64,000 nucleotides of DNA, taken from the NCBI GenBank assembly GCA_012295275.1, contig CM022674.1:16182001-16246000 (forward strand). The letters are read 5' to 3'. The stretch comes from Chrysomallon squamiferum. Taxonomy: Eukaryota > Animalia > Mollusca. The translations under genes and the position numbers were made by a program. This document shows positions 582-56,479 of this stretch, piece after piece. The notes beneath the pieces are model-generated. The model was not told the DNA's origin, did not search any database, and saw nothing but the letters and a program-made list of their open reading frames with translations. How positions within the stretch are numbered: the first letter of the stretch is position 1; each line of letters opens with the position of its first letter.

Positions 582-1040
582 AGACTGATGTTGGTATGTG
601 TTTACAGTTTGAAAAATGCACTAAATGGAAAGTTGATATCATGAAACCTGAATTAATACATTTAATGGCAATGCAGTAATTTTTATGGACTTTTGTTACA
701 GTGCACTGGTTGTGTCATTTACAGTGATTTCTGACATGTGTTATGTTGATTTTTGTCATGTATATTTGTAATGTTTATAAAAAATTGGAATAGCACTTAT
801 AAATCTGTGTTTTTCAGGTTGACTACTCGACAAAGCAGCAGAACAGCTGAGAAACACAGGAACCCAGAGCCAGAACCTGTCCCAGTCAGCCCATCACCAC
901 CCCCTAAAAAGATGAAAAAGAACAAATCCAAAATGAGGTAAGACTAATTAATTAGAACTGTGTTTTTAGGTAACGGTATTGTGAAATTGTGTTTTCTTGA
1001 GTATTTCTAAATAACATGATCAAACACTATTTAAAAAAAT
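582..1040 (+). repeat. Copy 1 of a ~450-bp duplication carrying the PEPEP..SPPPKKMKK exon (copy 2 ~4818-5260)
   Basis: The two regions align visibly from 'agactgatg' onward; ORFs 753..941 and 4972..5160 are near identical. Confidence 0.9.
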
Positions 1041-4500: not shown

Positions 4501-7136
4501 ACCGTCACTAAACATGTGACGTCACACCGTGGATGCATCTAAAAAATGAAAGCATTAAAAATCTCATACGAGACACAGAAGAAAACAACAACCTAATTCC
4601 GGAATCAATCGCTACGATGTTTTTCGGCAAAAGATTCAGAAAAGACATTAGCCATTCATTGAAGGATTGTTGATACGTGGTAACCTGCCGGTAACCTGAA
4701 CGAGAGTTCTCAACTTATTTCGATGCCTGTTTAAAGACAAATATTTAGATCATTTTGACTAGGTTATTTTAAAAGTAGCTCGCAAGCTGAAAAGTTGTGA
4801 GCACCCTTGGTGTATGGAGACTGATGTTTGTATGTGTTTTCAGTTTGAAAAATGCACCAAATTGAATGTTGATATCATTAAAACTAAATTGATCAATTAA
4901 TGGCAATGCAGTAATTTTCATGGACTTTTGTTATCGTTTACAATGATTTCTGACAACTGTTCTGTTGATTTTTGTCATGTTTATTTGTAATGTTTAGAGA
5001 AATGTGGAATAGCTTTAGTAAATCTGTGTGTTTCAGTTTGACTACAGAGCAAAGCAGCAGAACAGCTGAGAAACACAGGAACCCAGAGCCAGAACCTGCC
5101 CCAGTCAGCCCATCACCACCCCCTAAAAAGATGAAAAAGGACAAATCCAAAATGAGGTAAAAATAATTAATTAGAACTATGTATTTGTGTAACTGTATTG
5201 TGAAATTGTGTTTTTCTGAGTATTTCTAAATAATATGATCAAATACGTCTATTAAAAAAATTAGGATATTTATGTAAGCCTTGTTTTATTTGATTAATGT
5301 TAAGCAATGTTCGAGGCATTTATTTATAAATAGTATTATTTATAGTGAATATTTGGATCAATGCCTCCTGATGGAATCTCGAGCCGTTTTCATTTTAGCA
5401 GTGTTCAACACCTGATGTATGAAATAGTTTGTACTGTCTGTGGGTAGGTATAAATGAAACATCACTTGTTGTTAATAAGACAGAAGTGACTGTAGTGGGT
5501 TTCTTGTTTTGTTGTCTGACTGTTCGTAATTCTTATCTCTGACCCCATATAACAGTAAATGAAATAAGTAAGTAAAACATTTTGTTTCTTCCTCGTATAT
5601 AAAAAATCATTATATTATTTTTTACAGCTCAGCCAATATGGATGACAAAAATGAGAGTTCAGAACATTCTTCTAAAACAACAGCTGTTTCGTCCACTGTG
5701 ACAGCTGTTTCTTCTGTAGAGACTGTGGCAGCTGTGTCTCTCTTAGACAATATGTCAAGTCTATCTCTCTCTGGCATCATATCTCAGTCTTTCTTTGACA
5801 TCACTCGTATAGAACATCGTTTACAACTACCTGTGTCAAGCAGTCATGGTAATACACATATTATTTCAATGTGCTGTTAACTTTTTTAATAGGAAATTAT
5901 TAAGAGTCAACATTATTTGTATATTTGTTATAATAGAATATTTCAGTATATTGTATTGTTTATTAAAGATAAATTCTAAATTGACAAATGTACTATTTAC
6001 ATTTGTATCAATACACTGTTGCAATGAATTGTTTATTTACTTCTTAGTCATTAGTAAATTGACAATTAAAAGTTACATTGATAATGAATTAAGTTCATAG
6101 TTTTTTATGGCCTTTTTGTTTAACAGTTTAAAACAGTAAAGCAAAATACACTCTAGTTACTGTTTTGTTGCTTCATCATGACCTTTATAATTAATTTTGT
6201 ATTTACTTATATACATTTTAATACTTTAAATTAATACTTATTTCATAGCACCTGCACATAATTAGTTAAAAACATTTTTAAATGATGTATTGCTATATGC
6301 AGTAATACTTTTAGTAGATTATATTAATACTGTATTCTGTCCTTAAAAATGTATTTACTCTGTTTCACAGGTACTCAAATATTACAACTTGTACAACCAA
6401 CAGTAAACATACATAACTGTGGAAATGTTCTATTTCGAATGGGAAACAAGTTAATTAGTAAGTTGAAAACTGAAAGTTTTCTTTTTCTGTTTATGTTTAA
6501 TATATAAAAGAATAGACATTAGTGTTTTTAATAGTTTAAAGTAATACTTATTTCAGAGCTGCATATAATTAGTTAAAAACATTTTTAAATGATATATTGT
6601 TATATGCAATAATACTTTTAATAGATTGTATTAATACTGTATTCTGTCCTTAAAAATGTTTTTACACATTCACAGATACTCCAAAATTACAACTTGTAAA
6701 TCCAACAGTAAACATACATGACTGTCAACATTTTCAAATAGGAGCCGAAAACAAGTTAATTAGTAAGTTGAAAAGTGAAAGTTTTCTTTTTCTGTTCATG
6801 TTTAATATATAAGAGAATACAGATTAGTGCTTTTCTCTCAGACACTGTTAAATGAACAACATCCACACATGTGAGCACTTATGCTAAAGGAGACAAGTCT
6901 ATTTTTTTCTGAAAGATGAATATATTTGGCATTGACATTGCATGTATTTTGATGTTGAAGCAGTTTTTAATATTGATGTCACCATGTCATCACAAGAAAC
7001 ACATTTGCTAAGAAAAACTGTAAACATTCATAAGTAGCATTACAATAGAATACCTAATCAATAATTTGCCAAAACATTCAGGAATTTTATGTCATAGAAT
7101 TAAGAAGTACAGGTACATTGCGATGGTAATGTTTGC

Positions 7137-7194
<58 letters not shown>

Positions 7195-10100
7195 ATATAT
7201 ACACCTTCCATAGATAATGTGTAAATATGTATGTATGTATGTATATATTTATGTATATGTTTATATCTATATATGTATATATATGTATGTGTGTGTGTAA
7301 TAATAATAATAATATAAACAATAGTAACTATATAACAGTAGTGAGAAATAACAACAGCAGTATATTAATAATATATATTATTTCTTTTGATGTTGTGATA
7401 CAGAGTCTACCAGGTCACAGTTAAACTCAGTTGACAGGAGAGTCTATGTTGAAACAAGAGCAGAAGAAAAAGGAGTAACACTTTTGAAAAAGAATGGTGT
7501 TGTGATTGTAGTAGGATGTCCAGGTTCAGGAAAGACAACTCTAGGTCTGAACATGCTTAAACAGATACAGGAGAAAGAAAAAATAGTCTCTTACATCGTG
7601 ACTCATCACTCTGATTTCAAATACATTCCTGTGTCTAAAGACAAGCCATGTACTGTTCTCATTGATGACATATTTGGTAAAACTAATCTTGTATCAGATT
7701 TTGTGTCGTCTTGGAAACAGCTATTTCCAGAGGTGTGGAGTCTTGTTAAAGATCGGAGTGTGAGATGTATTATTACTTTAAGAAAACAAATATTTACAGA
7801 AATTATAGCCAATCTGAAGGAATTTGATCTGTTCAATGAAAATCATCTCCTTGATCTGCAGAGCGATGAATGTTGTCTGAATTATGAAGAGAAGATAGAA
7901 ATTCTAAACAAGTATCTGGAACAAAAGAATGTTACAATTGATGAAGGTGATAAAGAGACTGTCATTCAGTGTTCATGTATAGATTTAGGATTTCCTCAGG
8001 TGTGTGTGTATTATGTTAATTCAAGTGACGCACAAAAAAGAGGAGTTAAGTTTTTTGAGAAACCTGTAGAATATCTCACAAAACAACTGGACAAATTGAA
8101 AAAGGATAAATCTTCACAGATCGGTTACCTGGTTCTACTGCTGATTTTGTTCCAACAAGGCAGTCTCAGCATTGATTTACTGGACCCATTTAAAAGTGAC
8201 TCTGACAGTCACATAATGAAATTAGTAAGACAGCTAGAGCGATTCTGTCGGTGTGTAAAAAACACTGATCTCAAAGATATAAAGAAAACAGCTGATGAAA
8301 TGTGTGGTACCTATTTGAAGTTCTCTGACAATAAATACACATTTATTCACCAGTCAGTGTTTGACTCATTGTTTCTGATGTTTTCATCAGAGTTTCCAAA
8401 GAAAGCAGCAGAGTTGCTAGAAATGTGTCCTGACTCCATGTTGTTAGAATATGTTGTGACACCTGGAGTGTCTAACAAAAGTCACATTACAATGACTGTG
8501 AAACCTAACTGCTTTGATGTTCTTGCTCGGAGATTTAGTGACTTGTTGGTATCAAGCAATGCTGAAGACATTATTTCACATCCATCATTGAAAGATGAAG
8601 AGTTTGTGAAGTATCTCATAAAAGAAACATACTTTAATGATAAATTGATTGAAATACTGATTCACAAACTACACAAACATGAAAATAAATATTTGTATAT
8701 ATCATCTGTAAACGTAGAGAGTGTAGATGAAATATTTAGCAATATTTCATGTCTTCTTGACAGTTATTCAAAGTGTTCTTTTTACATGTATTTGGATACT
8801 AAAAATTATTTTGAAATTTCATCATCTGTTCAAAGTGAGTGTATTGTGAAGGGATTAAGAACATTATCAAGATTTTTCACTGAAAATCTGTGTAAAATGA
8901 AATTAACAAGTCTGAAAAAAGAACTTTTGAATATGTCTTGTTTGTTTGGTGATGAAGATGTTGTCAGAATGTTGCTACAATCAGGTGTTATTCCAGCATT
9001 TGATACACTGAGTGCAGCTGCCTCTTCAAAAACAGACAGTGTTACCATACTTAAAGAACTGTTACAATGTGAAAAAGAAATGAAATTGAATGACTATTCA
9101 GATCTTTTACTTGCATCTATTTGTTCAGGTAATTTGAAGATTGCATGTCTGTTAGCTGAAATGACAAAAAATGAGAAACACAACAATGAAATCAAGGAAA
9201 AAGCAATTAAACTGTTATTGGTTAGGTTCCATAGACAAGTAACACTTCATTCAAGTAAACGGCATTCTGGGAAGTCGAAGACTTCTGAAGATGTTGATGT
9301 AAGCCATCTTTTTAAAACATTGGTTACCACTGATGTAATAAACAAAATTGAAGACATTGCTATTATTGCTGCTTGTCAGAGTAATTCTGGTGTTATAAAA
9401 GAAATAGTAAAACTTAAACCTGATTGTTTAAATGATGACAACAGAGATAAAGTACTTTTAGCTGCAGCAGTATGGGGAGCCATTGATACAGTGAATTTTC
9501 TCATTCAGCAGAGATGTAATGATACAGATGAGAACTGGAAGAAAAGTCAAGTACTGAAAGTCGCAGTGATGTGTAACAGTGCTGATGTTGTTCAGTGTCT
9601 TCTTGATAAAGGAGCTGATCCTAATGTGAATGTAGCTGTTAATCAGAAATTGATTCAGTTGTTTAAAGATAATTTCGAACTGTTGTCTCATGGCAAAGTT
9701 AATTTAAAATTCTTGCCTTCATACACACCCCTCCACATTTCAGTTCTGCGTGGTAACTTAGATATGTTAGAATCACTAATAAAGAGAAATGCTGATGTTA
9801 ATGCAGTAAACAGCAAGGGAAAAACTCCACTTCATGAAGCTGTAAACGCAGTGACACACAGAAAGGAAATAGCTTTGTTCTTACTGAAAAATGGTGCTTG
9901 TACTGATATAACAGATGATAACAAGAATTCAGCATTGCACATAGCCTCTGAAATTGACATAGATGTTGTGAAAAAAGTAACAAAAAAGGGTGCTGAAATA
10001 AATGCAATTAACACTGAACAGAAAACTCCTCTTCATGTATCTTTGATGTGTCGCAGGCCAGAAATAGCTTTATATTTACTAAACCAAGGAGCTGATCCCA

Positions 10101-12295
10101 ATTTAACAGACAATGATAACAAATCTGTTTTACACATAGCAGCTAAATATGGAAAAGTAGAAATTGTGACAGCACTGATTGAAAAAGGTGTTGATGTAAA
10201 TGTAAAGAACAGCAAAGGTGAAACTCCTCTTTTTACAGCTCTGAATTGTGACAAATTCGATTTTTCAGAACTAGCTATGTCGTCTTATAAGACAGAAGTA
10301 GCTTTGCTTTTACTGGAACAAGGAGCTGATCCTAATTTAACAGACAATGATAACGATTCTGTTTTACACTTAGCAGCTGAACATGGAAATCTAAAAATTG
10401 TATCAGCACTGATTGAAAAAGGTGTTGATGTAAATTTTAAGAACATGCAAGGTGAAACTCCTCTTTTTACATCTTTTAAGTCTGAGCATTACAAAATACT
10501 TTTGTATTTACTAAAACAAGGAGCTGATCCTAATTTAACAGACAATCAGAAGAATTCTGTTTTACACTTAGCAGCTAAAGATGGAAATGTAGAAATTGTG
10601 ACAGCACTGATTGAAAAAGGTGTTGATGTAAATGTTAAGAACAGTCAAGGTGAAACTCCTCTTTTTACATTTCTGAATTACAACAAATATTATTTTTTAG
10701 ATGATCTAGCTACGTCCTCTGATAAGGCAAAAGTGGCTTTGGTTTTACTGGAACATGGAGCTGTTCCTAATGTAACAGACACTAATGATAATTCTATTTT
10801 ACACTTAGCAGCTAAACAAGGAAATGTAGAATTTGTGACAGCACTGATTGAAAAAGGTGTTGATGTAAATATAAAGAACAGAGAAGGTGACACTCCTCTT
10901 TTTATAGCTTTTAAGTGTCAGCATTACAAAATGATTTTGTATTTACTAAAACAAGGAGCTGATCCTAATTTAACAGACAATGATAACAATACTGTTTTAC
11001 ACTTAGCAGCTAAAGATGGAAATGTAGAAATTGTGACAGCACTGATTGAAAAAGGTGTTGATGTAAATGTAAGGAATATGCAAGGTGAAATTCCTCTTTT
11101 TACAGCTGTTAAGTTTCACCATTACAAAATATTTTTGTGTTTACTAAAACAGGGAGCTGATCCTAATTTAACAGACAATGATAGCAATACTGTTTTACAC
11201 TTAGCAGCTGAAAATGGAAATGTAGAAATTGTGACAGCACTGATTGAAAAAGGTGTTGATGTAAATATAAAGAACAGAGAAGGTGAAACTCCTCTTTTTA
11301 AGGCTTTTATGTGTCAACATTACAAAATAGTTTTGTATTTACTAAAACACAGAGCAGATCCTAATTTAACTTACAATGAAAACAATTCTGTTCTACATTT
11401 AGCAGTTGAACATGAAAATGTAGAAATTGTGACAGCACTGATTGAAAAAGGTGTTAATGTAAATGTAAAGAATATTCGAGGTGAAACTCCTCTTTTCTCA
11501 GCTCTGAATTACGACAAATTTGATACTTTTAAAGATCCAACAATATCCTTTGATAAGATACAAATAACTTTGGTTTTACTGGAACATGGAGCTGATCCTT
11601 ATTTAACAGACAATGATAACAATTCTGTTTTACACTTAGCAGCTGGTCATGGAAATGTAGAAATTGTGACAGCACTGATTGAAAAAGGTGTTGATGTAAA
11701 TGTTAAGAACAGAAAAGGTGAAACTCCTCTTTTTGCAGCTGTTCAGTTTCAGCAATACAAAATTCTTTTTTATTTACTAAAACAAGGAGCCGCATCTAAT
11801 TTAACAGACAATGATAAGAATTCTGTTTTACACTTAGCAGCTAAACATGGAAATGTAGAAACTGTGACAGCACTGATTGAAAAAGGTGCTGATGTAAATT
11901 TTAAGAACATTCAAGGTGAAACTCCTCTTTTTACAGCTGTTAAATATCAGCATTACAAAACACTTTTGTATTTACTAAAACATGGAGCTGATCCCAATTT
12001 AACAGACAATAATAGCAATTCTGTTTTGGAGTTAGCTGCTAAACATGCCAATGTAGAAATTGTGACAGAACTGATTGAAGAAGGTGCTGATGTAAATTTT
12101 AAGAACATTCGAGGTGAAACTCCTCTTTTTACAGCTGTTAAATATCAGCATTACAAAACATTTTTGTATTTACTAAAACATGGAGCTGATCCCAATTTAA
12201 CAGACAATAATAGCAATTCTGTTTTAGATGTAGCTGCTAAACATGCCAATGTAGAAATTGTGACAGAACTGATTGAAAAATGTGTTCATCTGTGA
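818..12295 (+). CDS. Spliced NLR-like gene: NLS-like exon x2, S/T linker, RHIM-like exon x2, nSTAND3-type STAND NTPase, helical region, ankyrin array; 5' end probably outside the window
   Basis: AG/GT-bounded exons 818-937 (phase 2-2), 5037-5156 (2-2), 5628-5848 (2-1), 6371-6457 (1-1), 6676-6762 (1-1) and 7404-12295 join in one open frame. The last exon reads KSTRSQLNSVDRRVYVETRAEEKGVTLLKKNGVVIVVGCPGSGKTT (Walker A), VLIDDIFG (Walker B) and FIHQSVFD (winged-helix motif), then ankyrin repeats. Confidence 0.85.
1091..4809 (-). mobile_element. Decayed hAT DNA transposon in an intron, with pseudogenised transposase (~1940-4380)
   Basis: Ends 'cagaggtgtccaa' (1091) and 'gagcacccttg' (to 4809) are imperfect hAT-type TIRs. 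Minus-strand remnants: GREWLLIIHCSAHRIE (CxxH), KASGTRF, and the dimerisation-domain-like EIILAIALASASVETGISALNR. Many stops and frameshifts. Confidence 0.75.
2283..3055. repeat. ~390-bp tandem duplication inside the hAT transposase remnant
   Basis: 2283-2674 and 2675-3055 align (for example 'catcttcgttcagcgtaactggaaatg' occurs twice). Confidence 0.85.
6371..6457 (+). CDS. Paralogous exon with diverged RHIM-like core (GTQILQLVQPTVNIHNCGNVLFRMGNKLI)
   Basis: cacag|...|gtaagt, 87 nt, phase 1-1; part of a ~305-bp tandem duplication that includes the flanking intron. Confidence 0.75.
6676..6762 (+). CDS. Exon encoding RHIM-like motif (NTPKLQLVNPTVNIHDCQHFQIGAENKLI)
   Basis: cacag|...|gtaagt, 87 nt, phase 1-1. 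Matches the RHIM pattern of RIPK3 (VNIYNCSGVQVGDNNYL) and RIPK1 (IQIGAYNYM). Confidence 0.8.
7404..12295 (+). CDS. Large terminal exon: STAND NTPase plus ankyrin repeats
   Basis: Uninterrupted ~4.9 kb frame; acceptor 'gatacag' ends at 7403 and is in frame with the 7484 ORF; P-loop GCPGSGKT, DDIFG, many TPLH/SVLHLAA..G..EIV..L...G ankyrin units; stop TGA 12293-12295. Confidence 0.95.
10088..12290 (+). repeat. Coding tandem array of 11 near-identical 198-bp units (2 ankyrin repeats each), three with 36-39-bp inserts
   Basis: GADP-equivalent codons at 10088, 10322, 10520, 10757, 10955, 11153, 11351, 11588, 11786, 11984, 12182; spacings 234, 198, 237, 198, 198, 198, 237, 198, 198, 198. Confidence 0.95.
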
Positions 12296-13956
12296 AGCAA
12301 TTCATTGTGATGAAGAATTAAATACAGTGTAAATTTGTGTAACTATATTGCTGTGTAGTCTGGTGTATATCTAGGTACTGTAAATTGTTTCTATTGAGAT
12401 ATTCCATTACTGTACTGTTACACTCTGCTGTTTCTATTCAAATATTGTATTCATATATTGTGTAGTTTGTGTTTCTATACAAATGTTGTTACCATATTTT
12501 ATAGCTGCTGCATCTTTAAGCATTTCTTAGTCTCTATTGTATCTGAACATAACAAGAACTATTATAATAACTGTGGCTTTATGAAAATTTCACTTCATTT
12601 TAATTTCATTGAAAGAGTTTATGGTGTTTATTGCACAATTCCATGAAAAAGATGTTAAGAAATGTTTGGTTGCCTAGCAATAATAAAACAACAGTAATAT
12701 TGATGTTAATTTTGAATAGGTTTTTGAGAAAGTGAAAAGTCAGCCAGTTTTTAAATCAGATTTGTTATATTATTCATGATGATTTGATTATTACTTATGT
12801 TGCTATTAGACTGTTTATGTGTGAAAATATCTGCTAAATAGGATGTTATAATTAAAGTTGTGTTTTAAAGTAGAGTGCAGAATATTTAATGTATAGTTTT
12901 TATTTGACAAAATTGTTTTGCATTACTAAATAGTTTACTATGTTTATATTAAGAAAAGTACTATAGTAATGTTGTGTGAAAGTGTTTTTGTTTTTTGTTT
13001 TCTCCTTTACACAATAGTTCTGTAATACTAAATCAAATTTGAATATCTTTGTACTAAGTAAATTTGGATTTTCATTTGGAGTTTATATACATTTTTGTTT
13101 TACAAAATGTTTCTATTCATGCTTTTAATATATAAATGTATATGGTAAAATAAAATGTAATTTTAAATATATATATATATATATATATGTAAAACACACA
13201 AACACACATACACATTTAAGTTAGAGATAGATTATTTTTTTAATAAATTGTTCTGTGGTACTAAATGTTTATTATGTTTAGAATTTTAGATATATAATGT
13301 AATATAGTCTATTTTTTACTGTTATTGTCATACAAAAGAAAATATGAGCATATTTCTCTGTCAATTAGAAGACACGTTCATATAATGTTTGCATTTCACT
13401 AAATTATCATTAGAAAATACTAACAAAATTTATAAAGCAAATGTAAATCTTCATTCATCTGATAGTTTTTACATATAGCTTTAATAATTACAAAATAGTG
13501 GATAATAAAGTAAATGTAAGTTTTAAGTAGGAATATTTATTTAATAATTGAGAAATAGTGAATAATTAATAAAATAAATGTGATTTTAAATTAGAAACAT
13601 GTTTGGCTAATGTTTACATTTATCTCTTTGACACTGAACTGTAAGTGTGGATTTAAACTGATTTAATTTGAGATAAAATTTTAATACTATCTTTATTTTA
13701 TCTGTCAATAAGTTGTATCGAACAAGATTTTTTTTTAAATTTTTTTATTTATTTATTTATTATTATTATTTTTTTTTTTAGGTGATTAGTTATTTTTATT
13801 AAAAAACAATTTTGAGGAATGTGTTGGAGTTACACTGAATGATTTTTTTGTATAAATATCTTGTATTTATTTTGCCTGTCTTGATGATTGTTTCCTTCCA
13901 GAAATTATTTTCAATTAATAATGATTTATTTGTATTGTGTTTGTTGCCATTATTAC

Positions 13957-14019
<63 letters not shown>

Positions 14020-15119
14020 AGCTTTGTAATGATTTACTTTTAATTTACTTGTTTGTTTTTCAGTGATGGAAAACAGAAAGTATTGTCTAATGTGCTAACC
14101 TTTGCTGGTGATGCCACTGTTACATAACTGTATGAAATGTGTCAGTTCATGTATTGTTTTTAAGACACTGATACAAATTTTTTTGGATATATATATTGTT
14201 TATAATACTTGGCTATTGTATTCAATTAATATTTTTCATACATTTATTTTAAATATATATTTATTTGTTTATTTATATTATTATCATTATTATTAATTGG
14301 GAATATATTTATTTATTCTTACTTCTATGTATTTAATCATTAGAATATCCTGATTCAATTTGAATAGCAAATACTTGTATATGTTTCTAATTACAATGAT
14401 TCTTTTTTTCTTATTTAATTTGCATGATAGAATGTTTTTACTATTTTTATTTTGTGAATCAACTAACTTTAGTTCAATCTTCAACTTACATTTTTTAATA
14501 ATTAACATGTTTCTTTAATTAATGGATGAAAATGGACAAATGGTGTTTGTCTATCACATGTTACACATCCCATTTGTTCCATACCTAGAAGTAACAGTTG
14601 AAGTGTAATTAAGTCAATTCCAGTAATATTAGTGTAATAGTTACAGTGCTTTTCATTTGATTTTGTTACTGAATACAATGATAATAAAGAATAAAAAATA
14701 AAAACTTTATATGCAGTAATAATAATAATAGAAAGAAGGAAAGAAAAAATCTTAGGAGAATATCTTCTAGTACAGAAAAGTAAAAATCCTAATTTTTATA
14801 TAGTTAATATATATACATGTTACATATTTTGTTTGTTTTGTATATATAGCTGGACTTTTCATTGTTGCTGACTGGCTTATGAGATTATTTTGTGATAAAG
14901 TGCCACAACAAGTTTTCTCTAGAATTTTTACAATGATAATGAGAATGACATTGATAACGACATCATTTTCATAAACTGTAGGATTACAGTACAGATATAT
15001 AATAACAAAATTAAAATGCACATGCGTGGATGTTTAACATGGAGGACATAACTCTCATATATAGTTCTTATTAAAACACAGCTTTTTTAATACAAATATA
15101 TTTTTTACTGTTAAACAAA

Positions 15120-16780
15120 TTATTATACGAAATTATGTTTGGATGTCTCATATATTTATCAGGTATATCTGTTCTTGCATTTAATAATATAGGATCATTA
15201 CGTTCAAATATATAGTGATAGTCATATCCAATTTTGTTAACATTACAAATATGACATTTTCTGTTTTTAATTAGAATATCAGAACATTGTCCGGTTTCAA
15301 TAGGAAGTTTAGCATTCGCGGTTCCAAATTTACATAAGACATTAGCATTCTTTTGAGGCAGAAAAGTAAGACAGTTTTCTAATTTCAGTTCATTTTTAAT
15401 TTTTGTTTATAATTAATACCTTTTGGAGATGTTTCAATTTATTTTTTCCATAATTGTTGATGTTGATCATGTAATATTTTGGATATCGTTTCACGTAATT
15501 ATTTAACATTATCAAAGATGTGATATGTTAAACATCAATCATCTAAAATATTTTTTTACAAATTTGTTCCAAAAAGAATCGATAGCATGTATTAAATAAT
15601 ATAGTTGTGAGGAAATCTTGTTTTGGGTTTTGCAAATTAGGTTCCTTGAAAAGGTTATCATTCTTACTTTTATAGAAATACAAAGGAATACCGTCCTAGA
15701 TCATCATAGATCATAAAACCAGGGAGACGTTTATTAACATTTAGTAAATACTTACAAAATTTCATATGCAGTCTTTTTATTAGTTATATATTTGTAAAAC
15801 CCCATATTTCACAACCATACAATAAATCAAATATTCAGTGGATCAAGATATTATTCTGACGACTTTTAGCTATTAGGCTATACATAGCTTTCATTGCTTT
15901 TTTATACAGTTATCTTACGTTGTAAATGAATAGACCGTTTCTTGTCAAATGCATGCCCAGATATTCATATTTATCTATAATCTCTCCATCAAATTCAAAT
16001 ATAGAATCACTAGTTTTTCTCTTTTTACTGAATATTCAGTTTCAAGCTGTTCAAAAGCATACACTTTATAGCCAAGAATATTGATGTTATCAGCCTTATC
16101 TGTTTTTGTTTCAACTAAACATATTATATCATACTTACTAATGGTTTCAGTACATATAGTATCTCTGAGCTTACTTACAAACCGCACACGTTAATCTCTA
16201 TCCTTTTTAAAACATAAGAGCTTACTCCTTTATGATTTTTGTTTGGGGTGTTTTTTACAAATGGGAGAGGTTTTGCGCTGACTGAATTGGCTTGTCTTGG
16301 TGAAATTTCAAATCTCCGAGATCTTTTTTATTCCTTTCAAACTGTTTGTTATTATAATTCATACCCGTTTCCACATCTTGTACTGTTTTCTTAATATCAG
16401 TCATTTTACCACCGATATATTAGACAGTTATTTCCATACTATTCAGTCGTTTTTCGATGATGTCCAATTTCTCCAGTTTATCACACATTATATCTAACTT
16501 TGTAGTCAAAGTATCTGATTTTATACTGACATCTTGATTGTGCACAACTAGTGAAATTAAACCAGAATACTGACCGTGAGATCCATAGTGTTGTCCACAT
16601 TGTCCATACTGTGACTGCTGAGACTGCTGGGTGGCTGCTTACTGTTGAATTGGTGTTGACTGATAAAATGGTGCAGATGAACATTTAAGGTCATTTGACT
16701 TTTGTGTATTTTGACATCTTCAGTATGATGACTTCTTGACCAGCTTGGCTACTGCTTACCTTTAATTTCTCTCCACTTAT
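15120..16780 (-). mobile_element. Internally deleted non-LTR retrotransposon (LINE) remnant
   Basis: Minus strand: endonuclease start KYDIICLVETKTD..INILGYK jumps almost directly to post-RT sequence (LYGCEIWGFTN) and a C-terminal RKCHICNVN..G..YHYIFE zinc knuckle; the RT core is missing. Confidence 0.75.
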
Positions 16781-17386
16781 ATTTTCACTCTTATTTGTTT
16801 TCTCTTTTTACCTTTTCTCATTGCATGCTACATACAAACGTATCTTTAGCAATAATTTACATTGATAAATGGATTAAATCCCTTTAATACTAATAAACAT
16901 TATATATTTTCACAAACAGATAAGAGACACGACTTTCATTTCCACAAGATGCTTTTGTTTTCACTTTCAGGAACAGGAAATCAGATTTACAAAATACTTG
17001 GTCTGATTGGATGTGCAAGTCACGTGATAGTGCGGTTGTATTAAGCTGTTGTTTTTATTGGGATTAGCGACGTGGGAAATAACTAACGTTCCAGTATCAC
17101 CAGTAATTTAACTGCTTTGTTTAAACTTCGCTATTTTTTTAGTTTTGGCTTCTGGTAAATCGTAATAGGGATCAATTGGTTAATTATTTCCTAAGCCGAT
17201 TGTGCAACAATTGGGAAGATGAATCCATTATTGTATACCAGATACAGGACATCTGATTACCAGTTAATTCGACCATGACCTTTCTTTCTTATATGACAAA
17301 TGGATGTGTAACAAAAGTGAGAGTATCCATAAATGTAAACCTTGATTTTATTATTTTGAATACAAAATGAGAAATAATTGTTATTA

Positions 17387-17434
<48 letters not shown>

Positions 17435-19344
17435 TGGGGGGGGGACCAATATAACTTAGCTAAATGAGTAAATACTAAATTTGAATGTTGTTGAAATATA
17501 CTAATTTAGAGTTTAATGTTTCACTAGTTTCTTTTAGATTTTTGTACTATTTCATCATAATGGTAATTATTTGAATACTAAATGAGAAATATAATAACAG
17601 TTATTAATGTGTGTGTATATGACAAATATAACAGTTAAATGAGTAAACACTAAATCTGAATTTTATTGAAATATATTAATTTAGAGTACTGTTTCACTAA
17701 TTTCTTTTTGATTTTTGTATTATTTCATTATAATGGTAATTATTAATACGGAGTGCATTGTAATGTTGTTAATAATTAACATAATAAATATCTTTTATAA
17801 AATGTAATTACTTTTGTTTTCTTTATTAGATGAGCGATATTTCCTGTATTCAAGAAAAACACACTACAATGGAATAATGCATTGTACGAGTTCTTGTGAC
17901 TCCTCTGACATCCACCAGTGACATAGTGTTTGTAAGGGAGACAGCAGTCTGCTCTTTAATATGTAACCTTAAGAATTATATAAGCTAACTGACGGAGAAA
18001 GCAATCTCCTGTTTAATATATAATAGATGTTAGATTTTTCTTAAAACTTGTATAAGCTATGGTGAGGTGTTGTTTAGGGGACCCCTGACACCTGTGTCTG
18101 CTAAAGTTCCAACCAGTCTCGACTCCATCTGCGACATCTATGTTAAAAGAGCCGCTATGTGGTCTTTCCTAGGTAATAAAAGCAGAGATCGTGTTTTGTT
18201 TGGGGCAATCAGTTTTTACACCGTACAGAACAGACGTGTGGCTAACCCTCAGATGGACAGTTACACAGATCCAGCTGACTCAGATAACTATAAGTTTTTA
18301 ATGCTCTGTTTGACCAACTGAAAGGTAGTTTGATGTGGTTTTCTAACAAATATCATTTAACTATATATAGTTTGAAGTAGAATAATCATCAAAGTAAACT
18401 GTAATTATTATCTCTAAAACAGCGGGTGAGAATAGCAAGACATTTGATCATCTTGCTAAGTAGTAGATTATATTCATAGACTTGCATATTCAAATACATC
18501 TTCGGATGTGCTATGTTACCTTGAGGGATAAACACATTTAATATCCCCCGTATGTTCACTTATGTGGTGAGAGTCATTTTGTGGCAAGAAACTGTTTGTA
18601 ACCAGTCGTGTAAGCGTTCTAAGTTTACATGGTAAATAACTATTATTAGATCGGATAATACATACAGTTTTAAATCTAAAATTGTGTTGTTGTTTCTGGT
18701 GATTTAAAATTGGCTAAATATAAATTTATATATGATCTTGTTCCCTGAATACCGTCACTGCCGAGCCAAATCGGGTAGCTATCTACCTGATACAGGGAGG
18801 TCTGTATGTATAGTTAGTGGTAATTTGGGGGAGGAGTGTTACGGCTGTTGCGGGGTTCTAATTTGGTTACGTGACGACTGTGTTAATTACGGGTCGCATA
18901 CGACTGCGTTAGACGCCCCGTAGCAGTGTTACATACCAGCGAGTCTGGTAACTCTACTAATGTACAAGTAAATTGTGGAATGATTTAACTAAAAAACCAG
19001 ACATAGTTTATTAGGTTAATTTCCTCATACAGGGTAATAAGTAAATTATTCATGTATATTCTTACATTTTCCTGCATTTTTCACATGGACATATTTCTGT
19101 TCATTGTATATTTCAATGTATAGTGTCTAGGGTTGGTCTATCTTATATGTAATGTTTGGTTTGTGTCAGTATGTGCGAATGCTGATGCGAAACAGTAGCA
19201 CAGAAAATATCGCGGTCGTCCACCAAAGTGTTGACAGTGTTCAAGGTAAAGTTTTGGACGTTTAAAGTATTATTCATGCAACGAATGTATTGAAAATTAT
19301 GTATGTTCTGACATTTTTTCATTGTTCAGGTCAATGCATTTTCT

Positions 19345-19880
19345 AATCAAGAAGTCTCTAAACATATCGTGAAGGCAAGTAACAGCAGTGAACAGTACCT
19401 GGGTTTGAGTGAAGTAACTAAACATATGAACACAAATAACAATAGTGAACAGCACCTGTGTTTAAGTGACGCCACTAAAACGATTAAGGCCAGAAACAAC
19501 AGTGAACAGTACCTGGGTTTGAGTGAATTGACTAAACACATCATGATAACAAGTAACTATAGTCAACAGTACCTGGGTTTGAGTGAAATCACTAAACATA
19601 TCATGATAACAAGGAACTATAGTCAACAGTACCTGGGTTTAAGTGAAGTCACTAAAGCTATGAAGGCCAGTAACAACAGTGAACAGTACGAGGGTTTGAG
19701 AGAAGTCAGCAAACATATCATGAAGGCAAGTACAACAGTGAACAGTACGTGGGTTTGAGTGAAGTCACTTAGGATATCATGAAGGCAGATAACAACAGTG
19801 AACAGTACGAGGGTTTGAGTGAAGTCAGGAAACATATCATGAAGGCAAGTAACAACAGTGAACAGTGCCTGGGTTTGGAA
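19345..19880 (+). repeat. ~60-bp minisatellite, about 9 copies (NNSEQYLGLSEVTKHIMKAS-like)
   Basis: Repeated 'aacagtgaacagtacctgggtttgagtgaagtcactaaacatatcatgaaggcaagt'; only about one unit at the paralogous site 46070-46145. Confidence 0.9.
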
Positions 19881-21720
19881 ATTAAGAATTGTGAAATGAA
19901 ACCTGTAAATGACATAAAGGTAACATATTTACAAACATGCAGATCATTGTTATCATTTGACGACAAGAGTATAATAAACAGTGTATCATTAAAGATATTA
20001 CGTTTTAGTATGAAAAACTTGAGTGAGAGACACAGACAGCGCTTCATTGATTAGAATACAATAGCGATGCAAACATTGGTATATTTTGTTAGCACTCAAA
20101 TTGATGGTATAACTGTAAATGCAGATGTCATAAACCACATTCTTCTACATGATAGCTGCCTGAATTGCAGCCTCATCAATGTATTCATGTCTGTTCAAAA
20201 AAAAACAAAAAAAACATCTGAGAAATCAACATATTCATATAGTAGATTGTGGTTGGTTTGGTCAGAAGATTTTAGTTAATGGTGACAGAGATCAACCAGA
20301 CGGACTTTTGTTAATTACTCTGAAATGCCAGAGAGATTGATAGAAGTAACTGTGGGGTATATGTTTGTGCTATAGCAAAAGCTATTTTAACTAATAAGTG
20401 TATAAGTCAAGAGTAAGACAGAAAATAAATTCAAATAAGGTTAGAGAGAGACACTTTATACAAAAAGAGAGACAGAAAAATCATCTTTGCTGTTGAATAC
20501 TTTTGAGAAGATTAGGGAGTTCCATGAATCTATTTATAGATTTCAGTTTTAGTTATGTTTTCAAAGTCTGGTAGTAAAACTCAGCTGCCTGAAATAAAGA
20601 TAATATTTCAATTTCAAAATAAAATTACTAAAACAGGTAGTCACAGAATAAGAAAAACAAGTAGAAAAAAACAACAACATTCTGGCTTTTTCCTAAGACA
20701 CTGTATATTTTGTTAAATTTCCTAACTTACTACAATCAATCATGAACCATTCTGCAAGGATGAAGCTAAAAAATTCTTATCACTGGACTAATATTAAATT
20801 ATTGAAAAAAGGTTCAGTGTGTTTAGCTGCCGTTTTACTTATTTCAAAATGATCACTTTCCTTCCTGACAAAGTGTGAAGATTTTCGCTAAAATAAAATG
20901 TATAAAAACCTCAGAATGTTTTTTAAAATATGAGCAAAATATTGAAAGAAAGAAAACACACACATGCGTATGCCCTCAAGAAACGCACACACACAGCAAA
21001 ATTCACATTTCAACAGTACTATAATGAGTAATCCACATATTTCATCTAACAGGTTCTTAGAACAAACCCCTGCATTAACTTTTATTCAGAATTAATTATA
21101 GAGATGTAAAATTACTGCACTGTCTGTTTAATCAATCTTCTAACATACTTACACTTTTTTGTTAAAATATGTAAATAAAACATAACAGACTGAATAAATC
21201 ATTAAAAGGTGGTCATATCTTTAGTCTAGAAAGCGTTTTTTCTTTGCACAGTCAGTGCATGACATCACAATAAATGCGATAATATTCGTAAAGAACATAA
21301 TTATATTTCTGATATCATAATTTATTATTAACAAAGGTCAGTGATTTCATTTTTTAAATTAAATAATCATTTGGTTCCACACAAAATGTGCTTAAACTAT
21401 ATTTTTACATTAGTATAATACTAGCTTAAATATTTATTGTTAGGAAAGTGTGGTTTCTGTTAACAAATCAAAACAATATCTAGAAATTACATTAATCATA
21501 TTTATGTACTTTGTTCTTATCATCAAAAAAATAAATTTGAAAACCTAATATCCAGTTCCTGCTTCTAAGAAGATTACTTTGTAGTATTGTTTTTCTCTAA
21601 CCAGGTTTTTACTTTCTTACTGCTCCACATTTTAACTGAGAAAACATCAATGGTGGTCAGAACGGGTGACAGAGGTGGCTCACAAACATGCTTTTTCTTC
21701 TGTAAACAATAATAATAATA

Positions 21721-21771
<51 letters not shown>

Positions 21772-22171
21772 GTAATAACAATAAGATTAATATCTATAAT
21801 AACAACATCAATAACAATAATAATAACAATAATAATCCTAGAATCCCTATATCATATTTAATTTAAAAGTTGGGTTTTACTGGTATGTTGAAATGTCTGT
21901 ATACATAAATCACCATAAATTTAAAGAAATTCAAAGACAGTTTAACGTAAAAGTATTTCTTATTGTTGGATGATATAAAGCAAGACAAAAATGTTGAGAA
22001 TATAAAAAAAAAAAAAAAGACAAAAAACAAATTGCCAGAATTTAATGGACAAATATAATTATTGAAATTATATGTTAAACTATTTTGTTGTTTTATACTT
22101 TCAGTTGACATTACCTTAGCTTACCCATTCCTTCATCTGCCAGAGTTTGAAATTATAGAGATGGTTGACAG

Positions 22172-22303
22172 CAGGGCCTCCAAGAGAAATTTTGAAACGC
22201 TATACAAGACCCCTTTTGGGCCTCGAGACATAACAGATATAACACAATGAAAGAAGCATACGCAGATCAAAGTACCGACTGGACCACACCCTCATAGGCC
22301 CTA
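22172..22303. mobile_element. Short hAT-like MITE (longer paralog at 49075-49267)
   Basis: TIRs 'cagggcct..' and '..taggccct(a/g)'; flanking 8-mers gttgacag and gctggcaa differ only by three transitions (possible decayed TSD). Confidence 0.55.
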
Positions 22304-23210
22304 GCTGGCAACAACGTGATTGTGAGCAAACAGAAGTACCAGGATTTCAGATGCTGTATACACAAAATATGATATCTATCTCCAGTAGGTGCAGTACTGC
22401 TCTTTTTATAAAAAGTAATCTTGCAATATATGTAAAAGTTATAATGTCTGAATGAACTTGTAGTTACGTCAGCAAAATATGAAATCATTTGATTAACCGG
22501 TTGGTTTTAATACCACGTTTCTGACGATCACTGTGTAATTCAGAACACAGACAATGGAAGTATTGAACAATTTGATGACACCTACACTTTAGAACTACAT
22601 AATATTTATCTTAAAAGAAAAAGTATTGACACCAAGAAAAAGAAGATAATTTTGGCAATACACTTTGCAAGTTGTTTAAATATACTAATTTACATATTCC
22701 AAACAGGCATGTTGGTGAATACAGATATTTAAGTAACTTTACCTGTAAAAACTCTAGTTTTGTGGATTACTGTAAAATCTAAACAGAATGTAAATATTGT
22801 TAATGAAAAATATATTGATTTACACATTTTTGAGAAACCAAAAAGTGGGACAATAGTAAAACAAGATGATTTCTGTAATAATATTTATATTAATACAGTG
22901 CATGAACTAAACTATCAGTTAAATAATAACGAGTTTAATATTATAGATGTCATATTTAATAATGAATTAATTGATAAACTCACTAATTTGTTTGTTTATC
23001 CCAAAGATAAGAAAGCCCTACAGGAGACTAATCATAACTTATTCTGCCAGCACTTGCTCCACTGATTACTCCGTTTAAAAAATAAATACTGACCTACACA
23101 GAATAGGAAACAATTGTTATTATTTTTCTATTTTACACCTTTCCCACCTTAAAATGTTTGCCATTATTCGCAATGCAAAAACATTTAATAATAATTTAAA
23201 TTATAGAATA

Positions 23211-23328
<118 letters not shown>

Positions 23329-24073
23329 GAACACATTACCGATCTCAGTACTGAACTGCCTCTGTTACTGAGATCCCTCAGTAGTAACTGAGCCAAAAGT
23401 ACCCGAGTTTGAGCGAAGTCAGAGAAAAAGAACAGAGAGGCTGGTAGGATATGAGAATTACTATACTGACCACAACCTGTCCTTGATGATGTCTGATACT
23501 GCATCAGCTGTTACATTCAAGTGAGAGGGCACATACTGCTCTGTCTCAGTGACAGGATCAGAACTAAATGTTAACAAAACTGATTCTCATTATTGTGGAG
23601 ATCTTTAGGGGAACTTAATACCTGAGTTTCGGCTATGACAGTGGGAAAATCTATGTTGTCTGGACGATCACCAGACTGGATATTTCAAGATATTCCTTGG
23701 GATAATTTATTATGATATAATCTTTACAAACAAATGAATATACTTAAACACTGTACATAACAACGTTAGATTTCGGTGAATATAAACGAAGCAAACGACC
23801 AATATAATTATTGCGATCAACGTCAGGGTAACATATTTTGATAGCTACTAGGCATGCGCAGCGCGCGCACCTGAGAAACAAGGATCGATAGCTTTTCCTC
23901 GCATCCACAAAGCATGGCCACTTTTAAGTGAAACAGGTAATTGTTAATACTGTATTTTAAAATTCAAAAGAAACAGTTTCTATTTCTACAAAAACAGTTT
24001 TTCAAAGTGGGATCTAGTGCTTGCCAATAAAGTTTTGTCTGGATCTTGTTAAGAGTCAATTTAGACCACCTAA

Positions 24074-39450: not shown

Positions 39451-39627
39451 TTGAATGCTGGCTGTTCTGTTAACTGAAGTGTGCATTTGAATATTTCTGG
39501 TAGGAGTAGATGCGTATAAAATAGGTACTGAAGTGCTCGACGAAGACAATTCTGGGCTTTGTCTTCACAGAATATTCAAGAAGAAACACTGGGTAACTCT
39601 GTGAAGTGTCAAAGATTACAAAATTGA

Positions 39628-39827: not shown

Positions 39828-40946
39828 TTGTTGCTACTTTTCAGTTACGTATGTGAGAGATAGATTATTTTTTTAATAAATTGTTCTGTGGTACTAAATT
39901 TTTATTATTTTTATAATTTTAGATATATAATGTAATATAGTCTATTTCTTACTGTTATTGCCATACAAAAGAAAATATGTGCATTTTTCTTTTATTAATT
40001 AAAAGATACATTCATATAATGTTTACATTTCGCTAAATTATCATTAGAAAATACTAACAAAATGTCAAAAGCAAATGTAAATCTTCATTGATCTAATAGT
40101 TTTTACATATAGCTTTAATAATTACAAAATAGTGAATAATAAAGTAAATGTCAGTTTTAAGTAGGAACATTTAATAATTGTGAAATAGTGAATAAATAAA
40201 ATAAATGTGATTTTAAATCAGAAACATTTTTGGTTAATGTTTACATTTATCTGTTTGACACTGAACTGTAAGTGTGGATTTAAACTGATTTAATTTGAGT
40301 TAAATTTTAATACTGTCTTTATTTTATTTGTCAATAAGTTGTATCAAACAAGATTTTGTTTTTATTTGTTTTTAATTTAATTAATTTATTTATTTATTTA
40401 TTTATTATTATTATTATTCTTTTGGTGATTAGTTATTTTTATTAAAAACAATTTTTAGTAATATATTTGACTTATACTGAATGATTGTCTTGTATAAATA
40501 TGATTGTTTCCTTCAGGAAATTATTTTCTATTAACAATGATTTATTTTTATTGTGTTTATTATAATTATAATTATTATTATTATTATTATTATTGTTATT
40601 ATTACAGCTTTATAATTGTTTATTTTTAATTTACTTGTTTGTTTTTCAGTGATGCAAAACAGAAAGTATTGTCTAATTTGCTAACCTTTGCTGGTTATGT
40701 CACTATTACATAAACTTTATGAAATGTGTCAGTTTATGTACTGTCTTTCATACACTGATACATTTTTTGTTTTGATATATATATATATATATATTGTTTA
40801 TAATACTTGGTTATTGTATTCAATTAATAATTTCCATACATTTATTTTATCTTCATACACTGTATAAGAAGAAAAATATTTATTATTATATTTTTTTTTT
40901 TCATATATTTTTATATATTGTTTTTATTTTTTTATTTTTTTATTTA

Positions 40947-41006
<60 letters not shown>

Positions 41007-42176
41007 AGCTTTATAATGATTTACTTTTAATTTACTTGTTTGTTTTTCAGTGATGGAAAACAGAAAGTATTGTCTAATGTGCTAACCTTTGCTGCTTATG
41101 CCACTGTTACATAAACTGTATGAAATGTGTCAGTTTATGTATTGTTTTTAATACACTGATACATTTTTTTCGGGGGGGATATATATATTGTTTATAATAC
41201 TTTTATTTTATCTTCATACACTGGATAAGAGTGAGAAAGTCTTTTCTCTTTTTTCAAAAAAATATATTTATATATTCATTTGTTTATTTATATTATTATC
41301 ATTATTATTAATTGGGAATATATTTATTTATTTTTACTTCTATGTATTTAATCATTAGAAGATGCTTATTGAATTTGAATAGCCAATACTTGTATATATT
41401 TTTAATTACACTGATTCTTTTTTTCTTATTTAATTTGCATGATAGAATGTTTTTACTATCTTTATTTTGTGTATCAACTAACTTTAGTTCAATCTACAAC
41501 TTACATTTTTTATTAATTAACTGTTTCTTTAATTAATGGATGAAAATGGACAAATGGTGATGGTCTATCACTTGTTACACATCCCATTTGTTGCGTACCT
41601 AGTAGTTACAGCTAAAGACTAATTAAGTCAATTCCAGTAATATTAGTGTAATAGTTACAGTGCTTTTCATTTGAATTTGTTACTGAATACAATGATAATA
41701 AAGAATAAAAAATAAAATCTTTATATACAGTAATAATAATAATAATAGAAAGAAGGAAAGAAAAAATCTTAGGAAAATATCTTCTAGTACAGAAAAGTAA
41801 AAATCCTTATTTTTATATAGTTAATATATATATATATATATATATATGTGTGTTACATATTTTGTTTGTTCTGTATATATAGTTGGACCTTTCATTGCTG
41901 CTGACTCGCTTATGAGATTGTTTTATGATAAAGTGCCACAACAAGTTTTCTCTAGAATTTTTACAATGATAATGAGAATGACATTGATAACGACATCATT
42001 TTCATAAACTGTAGGATTACCATACAGAGAAGAAGGTATTACAGATATATAATAACAAAATTAAAATGCACATGCGTGGATATTTAACATGGATGAAATA
42101 ACTCTCATATATAGTTCTTATTAAAACACAGCTTTTTTAATACAAATATATTTTTTACTGTTAAACAAATTATTAT

Positions 42177-43060
42177 ACGAAATTATGTTTGGATGTGTAT
42201 ATCTGGTATATCTGTTCTTGCATTTAATAATATAAGATCATTACATTCAAATATATAGTGATACTCATCTCCAATTTTGTTAACATTACAAATATGACAT
42301 TTTCTGTTTCTAGTTAATATCAGACCATCGTCCGGTTTCAATAGGAAATTTAGCGATCGCGGTTCCAAATTTACATAAGACATTAGCATTCTTTTGAGGC
42401 AGAAAAGTAAGACAGTTTTGTAATTTCAGTTCATTTATAATTTTTGTTTATAATTAATACCTTTTGGAGACGTTTTAACTTGTTTTCTCCATAATTGTTG
42501 ATATTGATCATGTAATATTTTGGATATCGTTTCACGTAATTATTTAACCTTATCAAAGATGTGATATGTTAAACATCAATCATCTAAAATATTTTTTTAC
42601 AAATTTGTTCCAAAAAGAATCGATAGCATGTATTAAATAATATAGTTGTGTGGAAATCTTGTTTTGGGTTTTGCAAATTAGGTTCCTTGAAAAGGTTATC
42701 ATTCTTACTTTTATAGAAATACAAAGGGATACCGTCCTAGATCACCATAGATCATAAAACCAGGGAGACGTTTATTAACATTTAGTAAATACTTACAAAC
42801 ATTTTACAGTCTTTCTATTAGTTGTATATTTGTAAAACCCCATATTTCACAACCATACAATAAATCAAATATTCAGTGGATCAAGATATTATTCTGACGA
42901 CTTTTAGCTATTAGGCTAAACATAGCTGAATTGGTGTTGACTGATAAAATGCTGCAGATGAACATTTAAGGTCATTTGACGTTTGTGTATTTTGACATCT
43001 TCAGTATGATCTCTTCTTGATCAGCTTGGCTACTGATTACCTTTAATTTCTCTCCACTTA
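42177..43060 (-). mobile_element. Paralogous LINE remnant, more deleted than 15120-16780
   Basis: RNRKCHICNVNKIGDEYHYIFEC (42183-42389 ORF); aligns with 15120-15890, then skips to the 16640 equivalent. Confidence 0.75.
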
Positions 43061-44814
43061 TATTTTCACTCTTATTTGTTTTCTCTTTTTACCTTTTCTC
43101 ATTTCGAGGTTGCATACTCACGTATCTTTAGTAATAATTTACACTGATAAAATGGATAAAATCCCTTTAATACTAATAAACATTATATATTTTCACAGAG
43201 AGATAAGAGACACGACTTTCATTTCCACAAGATGCTTTTGTTTCCACTTTCAGGAACAGGAAATCAGATTAACAAAATACTTGGGCTGATTGGATGTGCA
43301 AGTCACGTGATAGTGCGGTTGTATTAAGCTGTTGTTTTTATTGGGATTAGCGACGTGGGAAATAACTAACGTTCCAGTATCACCAGTAATTTAACTGCTT
43401 TGTTTAAACTTTGCTGTTTTTTTGTTTTGACTTCTGGTAAATCGTAATAGGGATCAATTGCTTAATTATTTCCTAAGCTGATTGTGCAACAGCTGCAAAG
43501 ATGAATCCATTATTGTATACCAGATAGAGAACATCTGTTAACCAGTTAATTCGACCATGACCTTTCTTTGTTTGTGTAACAAAAGTGAGAGTATCCATAA
43601 AAGTAAACCTTGATTTTATTATTTTGAATACTAAATGAGAAATATAATAATTGTTATTAATGTGTGTGTGTGTGTGTGTGTGTCTGTTTGTGTTTGTGTG
43701 TGTGACCAAAATAACTTAGTTAAATCAGTAAATACTAAATTTGAATGTTGTTGAAATATATTAATTTAGAGTTTAATGTTTCACTACTATCTGTTAGAGT
43801 TTTGTATTATTTCAATATAATGGTAATTATTAATACGGAGTGTATTGTAATGCTGTTGATAATTATCCTAATAAATGTTTTATAAAATGTAATTACTTTT
43901 TGTTCTTTATTAGATGAGCTATATTTCTTGTATTCAAGAAAAACACACTACAGTGGAATAATGCATTGTACGAGTTCTTGTGACTCCTCTGACATCCACT
44001 AGTGACATAGTGTTTGTAAGGGAGACAGCAGTCTGCTCTTTAATATGTAACCTTCAGAATTATATAAGCTAAGTGTGACGGAGAAAGAAGTATCCTGTTT
44101 AATATGTAATAGATGTTAGATTTTTCTTAAAACTTGTGTAAGCTATGGTGAGGTGTTGCTTTGGGGAACCTTGGCACCTGTGTCTGCTAAAGTTCCAACC
44201 AGTCGCGACTCCATCTGAGACATCTATGTTAAAAGACCCGCTATGTGGTCTTTCCTAGGTAATAAAAGCAGAGATCGTGTTTTGTTTGGGGCAGTCAGTT
44301 TTTACACCGTACAGAACAGACGTGTGGCTAACCCTCAGATGGACAGTTACATATATCCAGCTGACTCAGATAACTATAAATTTTTAAGACTCTGTTTGAG
44401 GAACTGAAAGGTAGTTTGATGTGGTTTCTAACAAATATCATTTAACTATAGATAGTTAGAAGTAGTATAATCATCAAAGTAAACTATAGTTATTATTTCT
44501 AAAACAGCGGGTGAGAATAGCGGGACATCTGATCATCTTGCTAAGTAGTAGGTTATTTTCATATACTTGCATATTCAAATACATCTTCGGGTGTCCTATT
44601 TTACCTTGAGGGATAAACATATTTAATATCCCCCGTATGTTTACTGATGTGGTGAGAGTCATTTTGTGAAACAAGGTACTTTTCAGCAAGGACCCAAAAA
44701 TAAAATTGAAACGAGAAACAATACCATTAAAATAAAGAACGTATCCAATCTAGTGCATGATCACAGCTGTGAATGTGAGAGAAATGTAAGAAATGGTGAT
44801 ATAGACGTCACTGA

Positions 44815-45690
44815 TACAGGATTCATATGGAGACCTATAAAATATGTTGGCAACACCTGCTGCTTTAATGCAGTGATGGAAGCCCTAGCAGCAAGCGATT
44901 TGTATGGTTAATTCTTTATGAAAATAAATGTGAACCTGCAACTGTATATTCTGATACTTATGTAAAATTACGAGTTCAATTAGTAGAAGAAAGTGTACTG
45001 CAAATAAGGCAACATTTGAAAGATGAAAATAAACACTGCGAAGAAGTACCAGATGATATTTTACACAAAGCTGTATTAAATGTTGCTTACGCAATGGGAA
45101 CAAACATTAATGGTCAGCAAGATGCTTGTGAGTTTTTACTAAAATTATTGGCAATATACTGAAAGAGCTCAAAGTAATATGGTTTTATAACGTAAGTATA
45201 TTTATTTACATTGAAAATTAGGGAAAATAATTATGGGCATTTCATACGTGTCAACTTGATGCAATGGGTTACAGTTCTGTACAACAGTTATTTGATAATT
45301 TTCTTAAATCAAAGACAGTAGAAAAGATCTGGATATGCTCACATAATAAATATTTATTAAAGAACTTTTAGTTTCTTTCTCATCAACTGTTATTTTCACA
45401 ATTCACAGATTTTTATTTGAAGAGTGAATATACGAGAAAAAAAAATCAAATTATATTCAAGTTTCTCCCAATTTTTTCTTGAAAGGTAACGATCAGAGTA
45501 AAAATGCAGAAAAAGCAGAAACTAAATATCAGTTGAAGAGTTTGTTTGAAACCCTGAACATTTCTGCCACCAAAGTCACTATACCGCACTTATTGAACTT
45601 TGTGGTCAGTTTGTTTCATGTGATGATAATTCTGTCTTTTTCAACTGACAACTTTTATCATACATGCTACATGTTATTCCATCATTGAGT
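44815..45690 (+). pseudogene. Decayed intronless ubiquitin-specific protease (peptidase C19) domain
   Basis: Cys box PIKYVGNTCCFNAVMEAL; GQQDACEFLLKLL at ~45112; His-box-like SHYTAL at ~45575; DDNSV; terminal CYMLF. Order and spacing fit a USP; stops and frameshifts present. Confidence 0.7.
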
Positions 45691-47531: not shown

Positions 47532-47565
<34 letters not shown>

Positions 47566-48628: not shown

Positions 48629-48685
<57 letters not shown>

Positions 48686-49885: not shown

Positions 49886-50072
<187 letters not shown>

Positions 50073-56198: not shown

Positions 56199-56479
56199 AA
56201 CAAATCTAACGACCAATAAAATTATTGCGATCAACGTCAGGGTAACATATTTTGATGGCTACTAGGCATGCGCAGCGCGCGCTCCTGAGCAGACGATCGA
56301 TCGCTTTTCCTCGCATCCACAAAGCATGGCCGCTTTTGAATGAAACAGCTAATTTTTAATACTGTATTTTAAAATTCCAAAGAAACAGTTTATATTTATA
56401 AAAAAACAGTTTTTCAAAGTGGGAACTAGTGCTTTGCCAATAAAGTTTTGTCTGGATCTTGTTATGAGTCAACTTTGAC

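Follow-up and report, generated by a model that had tools for sequence, protein, structure and literature searches.

A tandemly duplicated RHIM exon in a likely RHIM-nSTAND3-ankyrin receptor gene of Chrysomallon squamiferum: a copy with a RHIM tetrad and a copy without one are included in the same transcript

The window analyzed is the whole stretch of 64,000 nucleotides, and all coordinates refer to it. The gene of interest lies in its first part, on the plus strand, with the following features.

818 to 937, plus strand: exon, second copy of the exon at 5037-5156, with which it forms an internal control pair.
5037 to 5156, plus strand: predicted exon, P/K-rich, in frame, farther upstream than the exon at 5628-5848.
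5628 to 5848, plus strand: exon, S/T-rich, upstream of exon A and in frame with it.
6216 to 6526, plus strand: duplication unit 1 (intron, exon A, intron).
6371 to 6457, plus strand: exon A, 87 nt, phase 1-1, RHIM-like, with the non-canonical tetrad VLFR (6427-6438).
6527 to 6834, plus strand: duplication unit 2 (intron, exon B, intron), with a short T-run at the junction.
6676 to 6762, plus strand: exon B, 87 nt, phase 1-1, RHIM, with the tetrad FQIG (6732-6743).
7404 to 12295, plus strand: large last exon of 4.9 kb, with an nSTAND3 NTPase (about 7445-7921) and more than 20 ankyrin repeats.

Read in frame, the S/T-rich exon is followed by exon A, exon B, and the nSTAND3-ankyrin exon. The NTPase matched the Pfam nSTAND3 profile at 89.4 bits against a cut-off of 27.2 and carries the Walker motifs GCPGSGKT (Walker A) and TVLIDD, as expected of a STAND NTPase, and 22 Ank stretches (Pfam) lie C-terminal of it, in the position of the sensor repeats of an NLR-like STAND receptor. 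From its predicted domains, the gene likely encodes a RHIM-nSTAND3-ankyrin, NLR-like immune receptor that, by analogy, would oligomerize upon ligand binding and give an immune output. Splicing of the exon at 5037 to that at 5628 was seen for a relative (run X8, joint 5137 to 5628). No third RHIM exon and no RHIM-bearing partner of the receptor were found within the 64-kb window. A small exon candidate at 6842-6870 (29 nt, stop in frame) was dropped by eye. The gene also contains a second exon-bearing duplication, at 575-1061 and 4811-5282, and the 3.7 kb between these two copies look transposon-derived by eye. The ankyrin units at 10023-12286 are 198 nt each and 84-89% alike at the DNA level; their pooled pN (0.148) is higher than their pS (0.117), with a few very variable columns, like the sensor repeats of fungal NLRs, and their omega of 1.27 is not different from 1 (log-likelihood gain 0.36).

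Protein searches returned nothing above 48% identity and no full relatives from the source species. Named relatives came to nine matches, the best of them gastropod: four from Gigantopelta aegis at 38-41% identity, followed by Haliotis. When 10 homologues were scanned over their full length, no Pfam RHIM match at E up to 0.1 was among those listed. In the homologue set, 152 of 153 sequences could be placed, and a Q-x-G motif at most 80 residues before the NTPase was found in 5 of the 74 homologues with an N-terminal part of at least 40 residues (P0088, P0015, P0056, P0057, and P0150, nSTAND3). The motif lies 21-79 residues before the NTPase, and P0088 has two, 33 residues apart. We regard these Q-x-G motifs in nSTAND3 homologues as a lead only. 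Elsewhere, the window holds a segmental duplication of about 10 kb (13217-23694 and 39850-50489, 84-92% identity, some 26-27 kb apart), an exon encoding a PAN domain and part of a rhodopsin-family receptor (54265-54651 and 56479-56931), and in-frame tandem repeats of 60 nt (19351-19877) and 51 nt (59774-60053) in open frames with no convincing family match. A minus-strand reading frame at 39470-39622, beside a 200-N gap, has no Pfam match; by its motif, it resembles the end of a PARP catalytic domain.

The sequence-only reading had described a duplication of about 305 bp spanning an exon and its introns, and a tandem repeat was indeed recovered at 6216-6834 (period 305, 2.0 copies, 86% matches). 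Its manual counts proved exact. Exons A and B differ in 12 of 28 full codons, all 12 changing the amino acid; 13 nucleotide differences fall in the 30-nt core (NCGNVLFRMG in A, DCQHFQIGAE in B), and the downstream introns hold exactly 6 over their first 70 nt, given there as about 6. Both exons keep the length of 87 nt and their splice sites and are symmetric, as had been noted; each has a CAG acceptor, a GTAAGT donor, and phase 1-1. The exons differ at 18 nucleotides in total, with 5 of 57 outside the core, while the upstream introns of the two units differ at 12 of 149 aligned positions and the introns of both units pooled at 18 of 219 (8.2%). An assembly artefact was ruled out by a contig from a separate run (X5), which joins the two exons with 0 differences on both.

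The RHIM core tetrad is (V/I)-Q-(V/I/L/C)-G, according to the available part of 10.64898/2026.02.19.706818. Against PF12721, the Pfam RHIM profile with its cut-off of 20, exon B scored 19.9 bits (E 5e-4, over positions 2-21 of the 22 in the profile), and its FQIG fits the tetrad at three of four positions, F replacing V/I. Exon A, with VLFR, fits neither profile nor tetrad and gave no Pfam RHIM match at E up to 10. The same source, in that part, gives four buried positions as essential for nucleation (RIPK3 450, 452, 458, and 460) and reports that many substitutions of flanking glycines raise nucleation. At ungapped spacing, the buried positions are hydrophobic in both exons (V, I, V, F in A; V, I, F, I in B). 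Since exon A has kept these four positions and changes of flanking glycines often raise nucleation, it would plausibly still stack and modify nucleation or partner choice.

That the exons are spliced is seen in the X5 contig, of 359 nt and depth 11.7, which covers 6370-6457 and 6676-6762 with 0 differences and a GT..AG joint from 6457 to 6676. Exons A and B are included together in one transcript. Run X5 is labelled "DNA?" and its library is not on record, so that the RNA origin of the contig is taken from its missing introns, and a retrocopy is possible. Upstream of exon A the contig has 154 letters, the last 30 of which are, by eye, the end of the exon at 5628-5848; downstream, exon B is presumably joined to the exon at 7404. 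Because exon A is present in this intronless contig, the idea that it is never included in mRNA, which would have undone the sequence-only reading, fails to the extent that the contig derives from RNA. As a separate observation, relatives in X7 and X8 have, behind 6457 and 6762, about 33 extra coding letters before the NTPase exon that are absent from the gene model of the window.

The same contig bears on the proposal that alternative splicing selects one copy or the other, or keeps both, and so yields isoforms that differ in specificity or act as a decoy. Symmetric exons with near-identical splice sites would suit such a switch, and RNA runs do contain joints that link the upstream exon with 6675 and with 6372, but the letters of these joints differ from those of the window, and most of them come from diverged contigs; in RNA run X8, other letters stand between the upstream exon and 6675. 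One X8 contig joins the end of the upstream exon straight to an exon-B-like sequence with 3 differences in 85 nt, and could represent a paralogue, an allele that lacks exon A, or a form that skips it. Mutually exclusive exons would appear one per transcript, which the joint from 6457 to 6676 contradicts. The only contig with 0 differences passes unbranched through both exons, and no exact exon-skipping form occurs among the contig rows listed, contigs being prone to drop rare isoforms. The switch is therefore not borne out, and we consider it very unlikely. The reading that we favor, with a probability of about one in two, is that A and B are co-spliced in the receptor, B likely being the working amyloid seed and A an attached modifier and not a switchable alternative.

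How strong is the divergence between the copies? The differences are clustered beyond chance (scan permutation p=0.0004), and nonsynonymous change in the core, at 11-13 of about 24 sites, stands against 8% in the introns (p 9e-6 to 2e-7). An excess of this size (p about 1e-5 or lower) is more than relaxation alone would give. Taken alone, the 12 amino-acid-changing codons out of 12 are weak evidence: in a neutral simulation of 17 random substitutions, stop-free trials had no silent codon with a chance of 0.03-0.13, depending on the model. By NG86, dN is 0.29 and dS 0.067, with only 18 synonymous sites and a Fisher p of 0.01-0.23 depending on the mutational path. The stop-free survival of exon A is uninformative, being expected at about 50% under neutral simulation. 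In the control pair (818-937 and 5037-5156), pN is 0.043 and pS 0.081 with flanking introns at about 12%, the exons being less diverged than the introns. A gapped alignment of the core brings FRMG of A onto FQIG of B, where 10 of 12 nt agree (p=0.006 in a post hoc shuffle test), and reads the core as two 6-nt indels and 6 substitutions in 24 nt (p=0.02 versus introns). On this reading, fewer than 13 events may lie behind the 13 core differences. The four nucleotide changes that abolish QIG in exon A all lie inside 6431-6436, within 6 nt, and the loss of QIG may represent one clustered or slip event.

The relatives allow part of this divergence to be polarized. Contigs placed on the region numbered 569, 478, 132, and 175, most of them less than 95% alike, and hundreds of contigs at such distances indicate many paralogues. 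Where junctions are visible, the contigs of relatives mostly have a single RHIM exon. The commonest contigs in X5, X7, and X8 read H-C-G-N-V at the position of D-C-Q-H-F in B (table rows were phased by depth), and one X7 contig reads H-C-G-K-V followed, by eye, by an exact match to the second half of exon B. Over the tetrad of exon A, contigs have I-G or L-G in place of F-R, and loss of the glycine was seen in no other contig among the rows listed. The contig tables cover only part of each exon, and exact cover of the exon A core in X1, X8, and X9 is little or none; absence from contigs shows nothing. Set against the commonest form, HCGNV, A has lost QIG while retaining GNV, and B has altered GNV while retaining QIG. 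The derived changes thus lie in a different half of each copy, and at least two events are needed. It follows that a single conversion or complex mutation, the alternative named in the sequence-only reading, does not account for the whole core, although the four QIG changes within 6431-6436 may be one event.

Among the classified exon rows, 19 of 19 distinct changed codons change the amino acid, a count that is not independent, several of them repeating differences between A and B; a stricter family count, based on 9 codons, has a p of 0.04-0.065. Of the 13 core differences, nine lie in codons at which relatives vary too. Relatives with a single RHIM show changes at these core positions as well, so that the variation is no peculiarity of the A/B pair. 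The suggestion of diversifying selection on the amyloid interface is thus sustained in part: the core excess over introns (p about 1e-5) speaks for it, but the relatives vary likewise and dN/dS is not significant on every path. Across the family, RHIM diversification is probably under positive selection.

Exon A could also be a passenger. It would then have arisen by unequal exchange or conversion between diverged members, or have decayed after duplication, a slip or multi-nucleotide event breaking the tetrad and leaving an in-frame spacer. The 8% difference between the introns of the two units is similar to the distance between a relative and the unit (38 of 356 in one X8 contig), one contig has an exon-B-type core directly after the end of the upstream exon, and both the confinement of the tetrad changes to 6 nt and the shifted match of FRMG to FQIG fit this origin. 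Yet even the gapped reading leaves its 6 substitutions in 24 nt, all in amino-acid-changing codons, and the buried hydrophobic pattern of exon A is retained. A donor tract is missing as well: no copy of either core within 6 mismatches lies in the window, except for a 6-mismatch match to exon A at 37553, and the longest nearby inverted match is only 7-8 nt. We regard this explanation as unlikely, though a serious rival.

Alternatively, positive selection may have co-adapted both copies into a HET-s-like two-rung pseudo-repeat, with complementary strands and a private specificity. The exons are co-translated, 29 residues apart; their derived changes lie in different halves; their aromatics sit at staggered positions (V..F in A, F..I in B), with net charges of +2 and 0, respectively. 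A number of proteins from invertebrates carry two or three tandem RHIMs, and charged residues have been argued to favor alternating strands (PMC4262963, in the part available). Against this, the charges give no column-matched pair between rungs by eye, and a core of the exon-B type apparently exists in the absence of A. As in HET-s-type systems, two related repeats stand in one chain; the double motif is not on an effector, whereas in fungi the effector has the double motif and the NLR a single copy, according to the accessible text of PMC4518210. Co-adaptation of this kind appears distinctly improbable.

To return to the co-spliced seed and modifier, the proposed course of events is modeled on fungal NLR and RIPK signaling. 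The ankyrin repeats would sense a ligand, the NTPase would then oligomerize, and the clustered RHIMs would nucleate an amyloid that would template a putative RHIM-bearing partner. Exon B would supply the seed, and exon A, without a QIG core, would tune signaling by still stacking on exon B and altering nucleation or partner choice. The RHIM loop and surface positions would diversify across the family, which would cover nine of the 13 core differences, and the other four changes would have removed QIG from A, possibly in one event, and been tolerated because B was present.

The RHIM-STAND-repeat architecture is already known. Receptors of the Branchiostoma BF82280 type, as described in the part of PMC4262963 at hand, likewise have an N-terminal RHIM, a central STAND NTPase, and C-terminal repeats; here the NTPase is nSTAND3 and the repeats are ankyrin, the exon duplication is traceable, and the RHIMs are only 29 residues apart, one of them without the tetrad. 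Fungal and bacterial NLRs (NWD2/HET-S, PP, BASS3) resemble the gene in that a short amyloid motif precedes the STAND NTPase and the sensor repeats, here ankyrin, are nearly identical, as far as the available sections of PMC4518210 and 10.1101/2020.01.06.895854 go. In those systems, by the same sections, the double pseudo-repeat is on the effector, whose gene is adjacent, whereas in the present gene the receptor carries the double motif. In mammalian RIPK3, rapidly changing sites surround a conserved tetrad and tetrad variants tune output (PMC12119088, in the sections available), and the vertebrate RIPK3 RHIM is similar to the present case in its fast-changing sites around the tetrad. Exon A departs at three tetrad positions, while the variants tested in those sections were single-residue ones. 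ZBP1, in the available part of PMC4262963, is comparable in having several RHIMs in one protein. Unlike in RIPK3 and ZBP1, it is paralogues within a single invertebrate genome that vary here.

Searched by title, with subscription papers, figures, and supplements outside the scope, the literature held no mollusc RHIM-nSTAND3-ankyrin genes; proteins of this kind may appear in Fig. 1 of PMC4262963. By title, it likewise held no hypervariable-RHIM family of mollusc nSTAND3-ankyrin genes, and no expressed pair of a canonical and a tetrad-less copy from a traceable duplication. The boldest reading would combine a diversified RHIM code across an animal NLR-like family, its paralogues selected for separate amyloid signaling channels, and a HET-s-like two-rung amyloid being born here from one RHIM through exon duplication, with the copy that lacks the tetrad as the complementary rung; we consider this combination quite unlikely.

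In vertebrates, RHIM cores are strongly conserved. If exon A were only a passenger, the case would be no more than an ordinary duplicated exon in a mollusc immune family that evolves fast. How amyloid signaling motifs gain new specificity or become two-repeat folds is a question on which this RHIM family could bear, and its natural single-RHIM variants, together with an expressed gene that holds a canonical and a tetrad-less copy, would offer a ready panel for cross-seeding.
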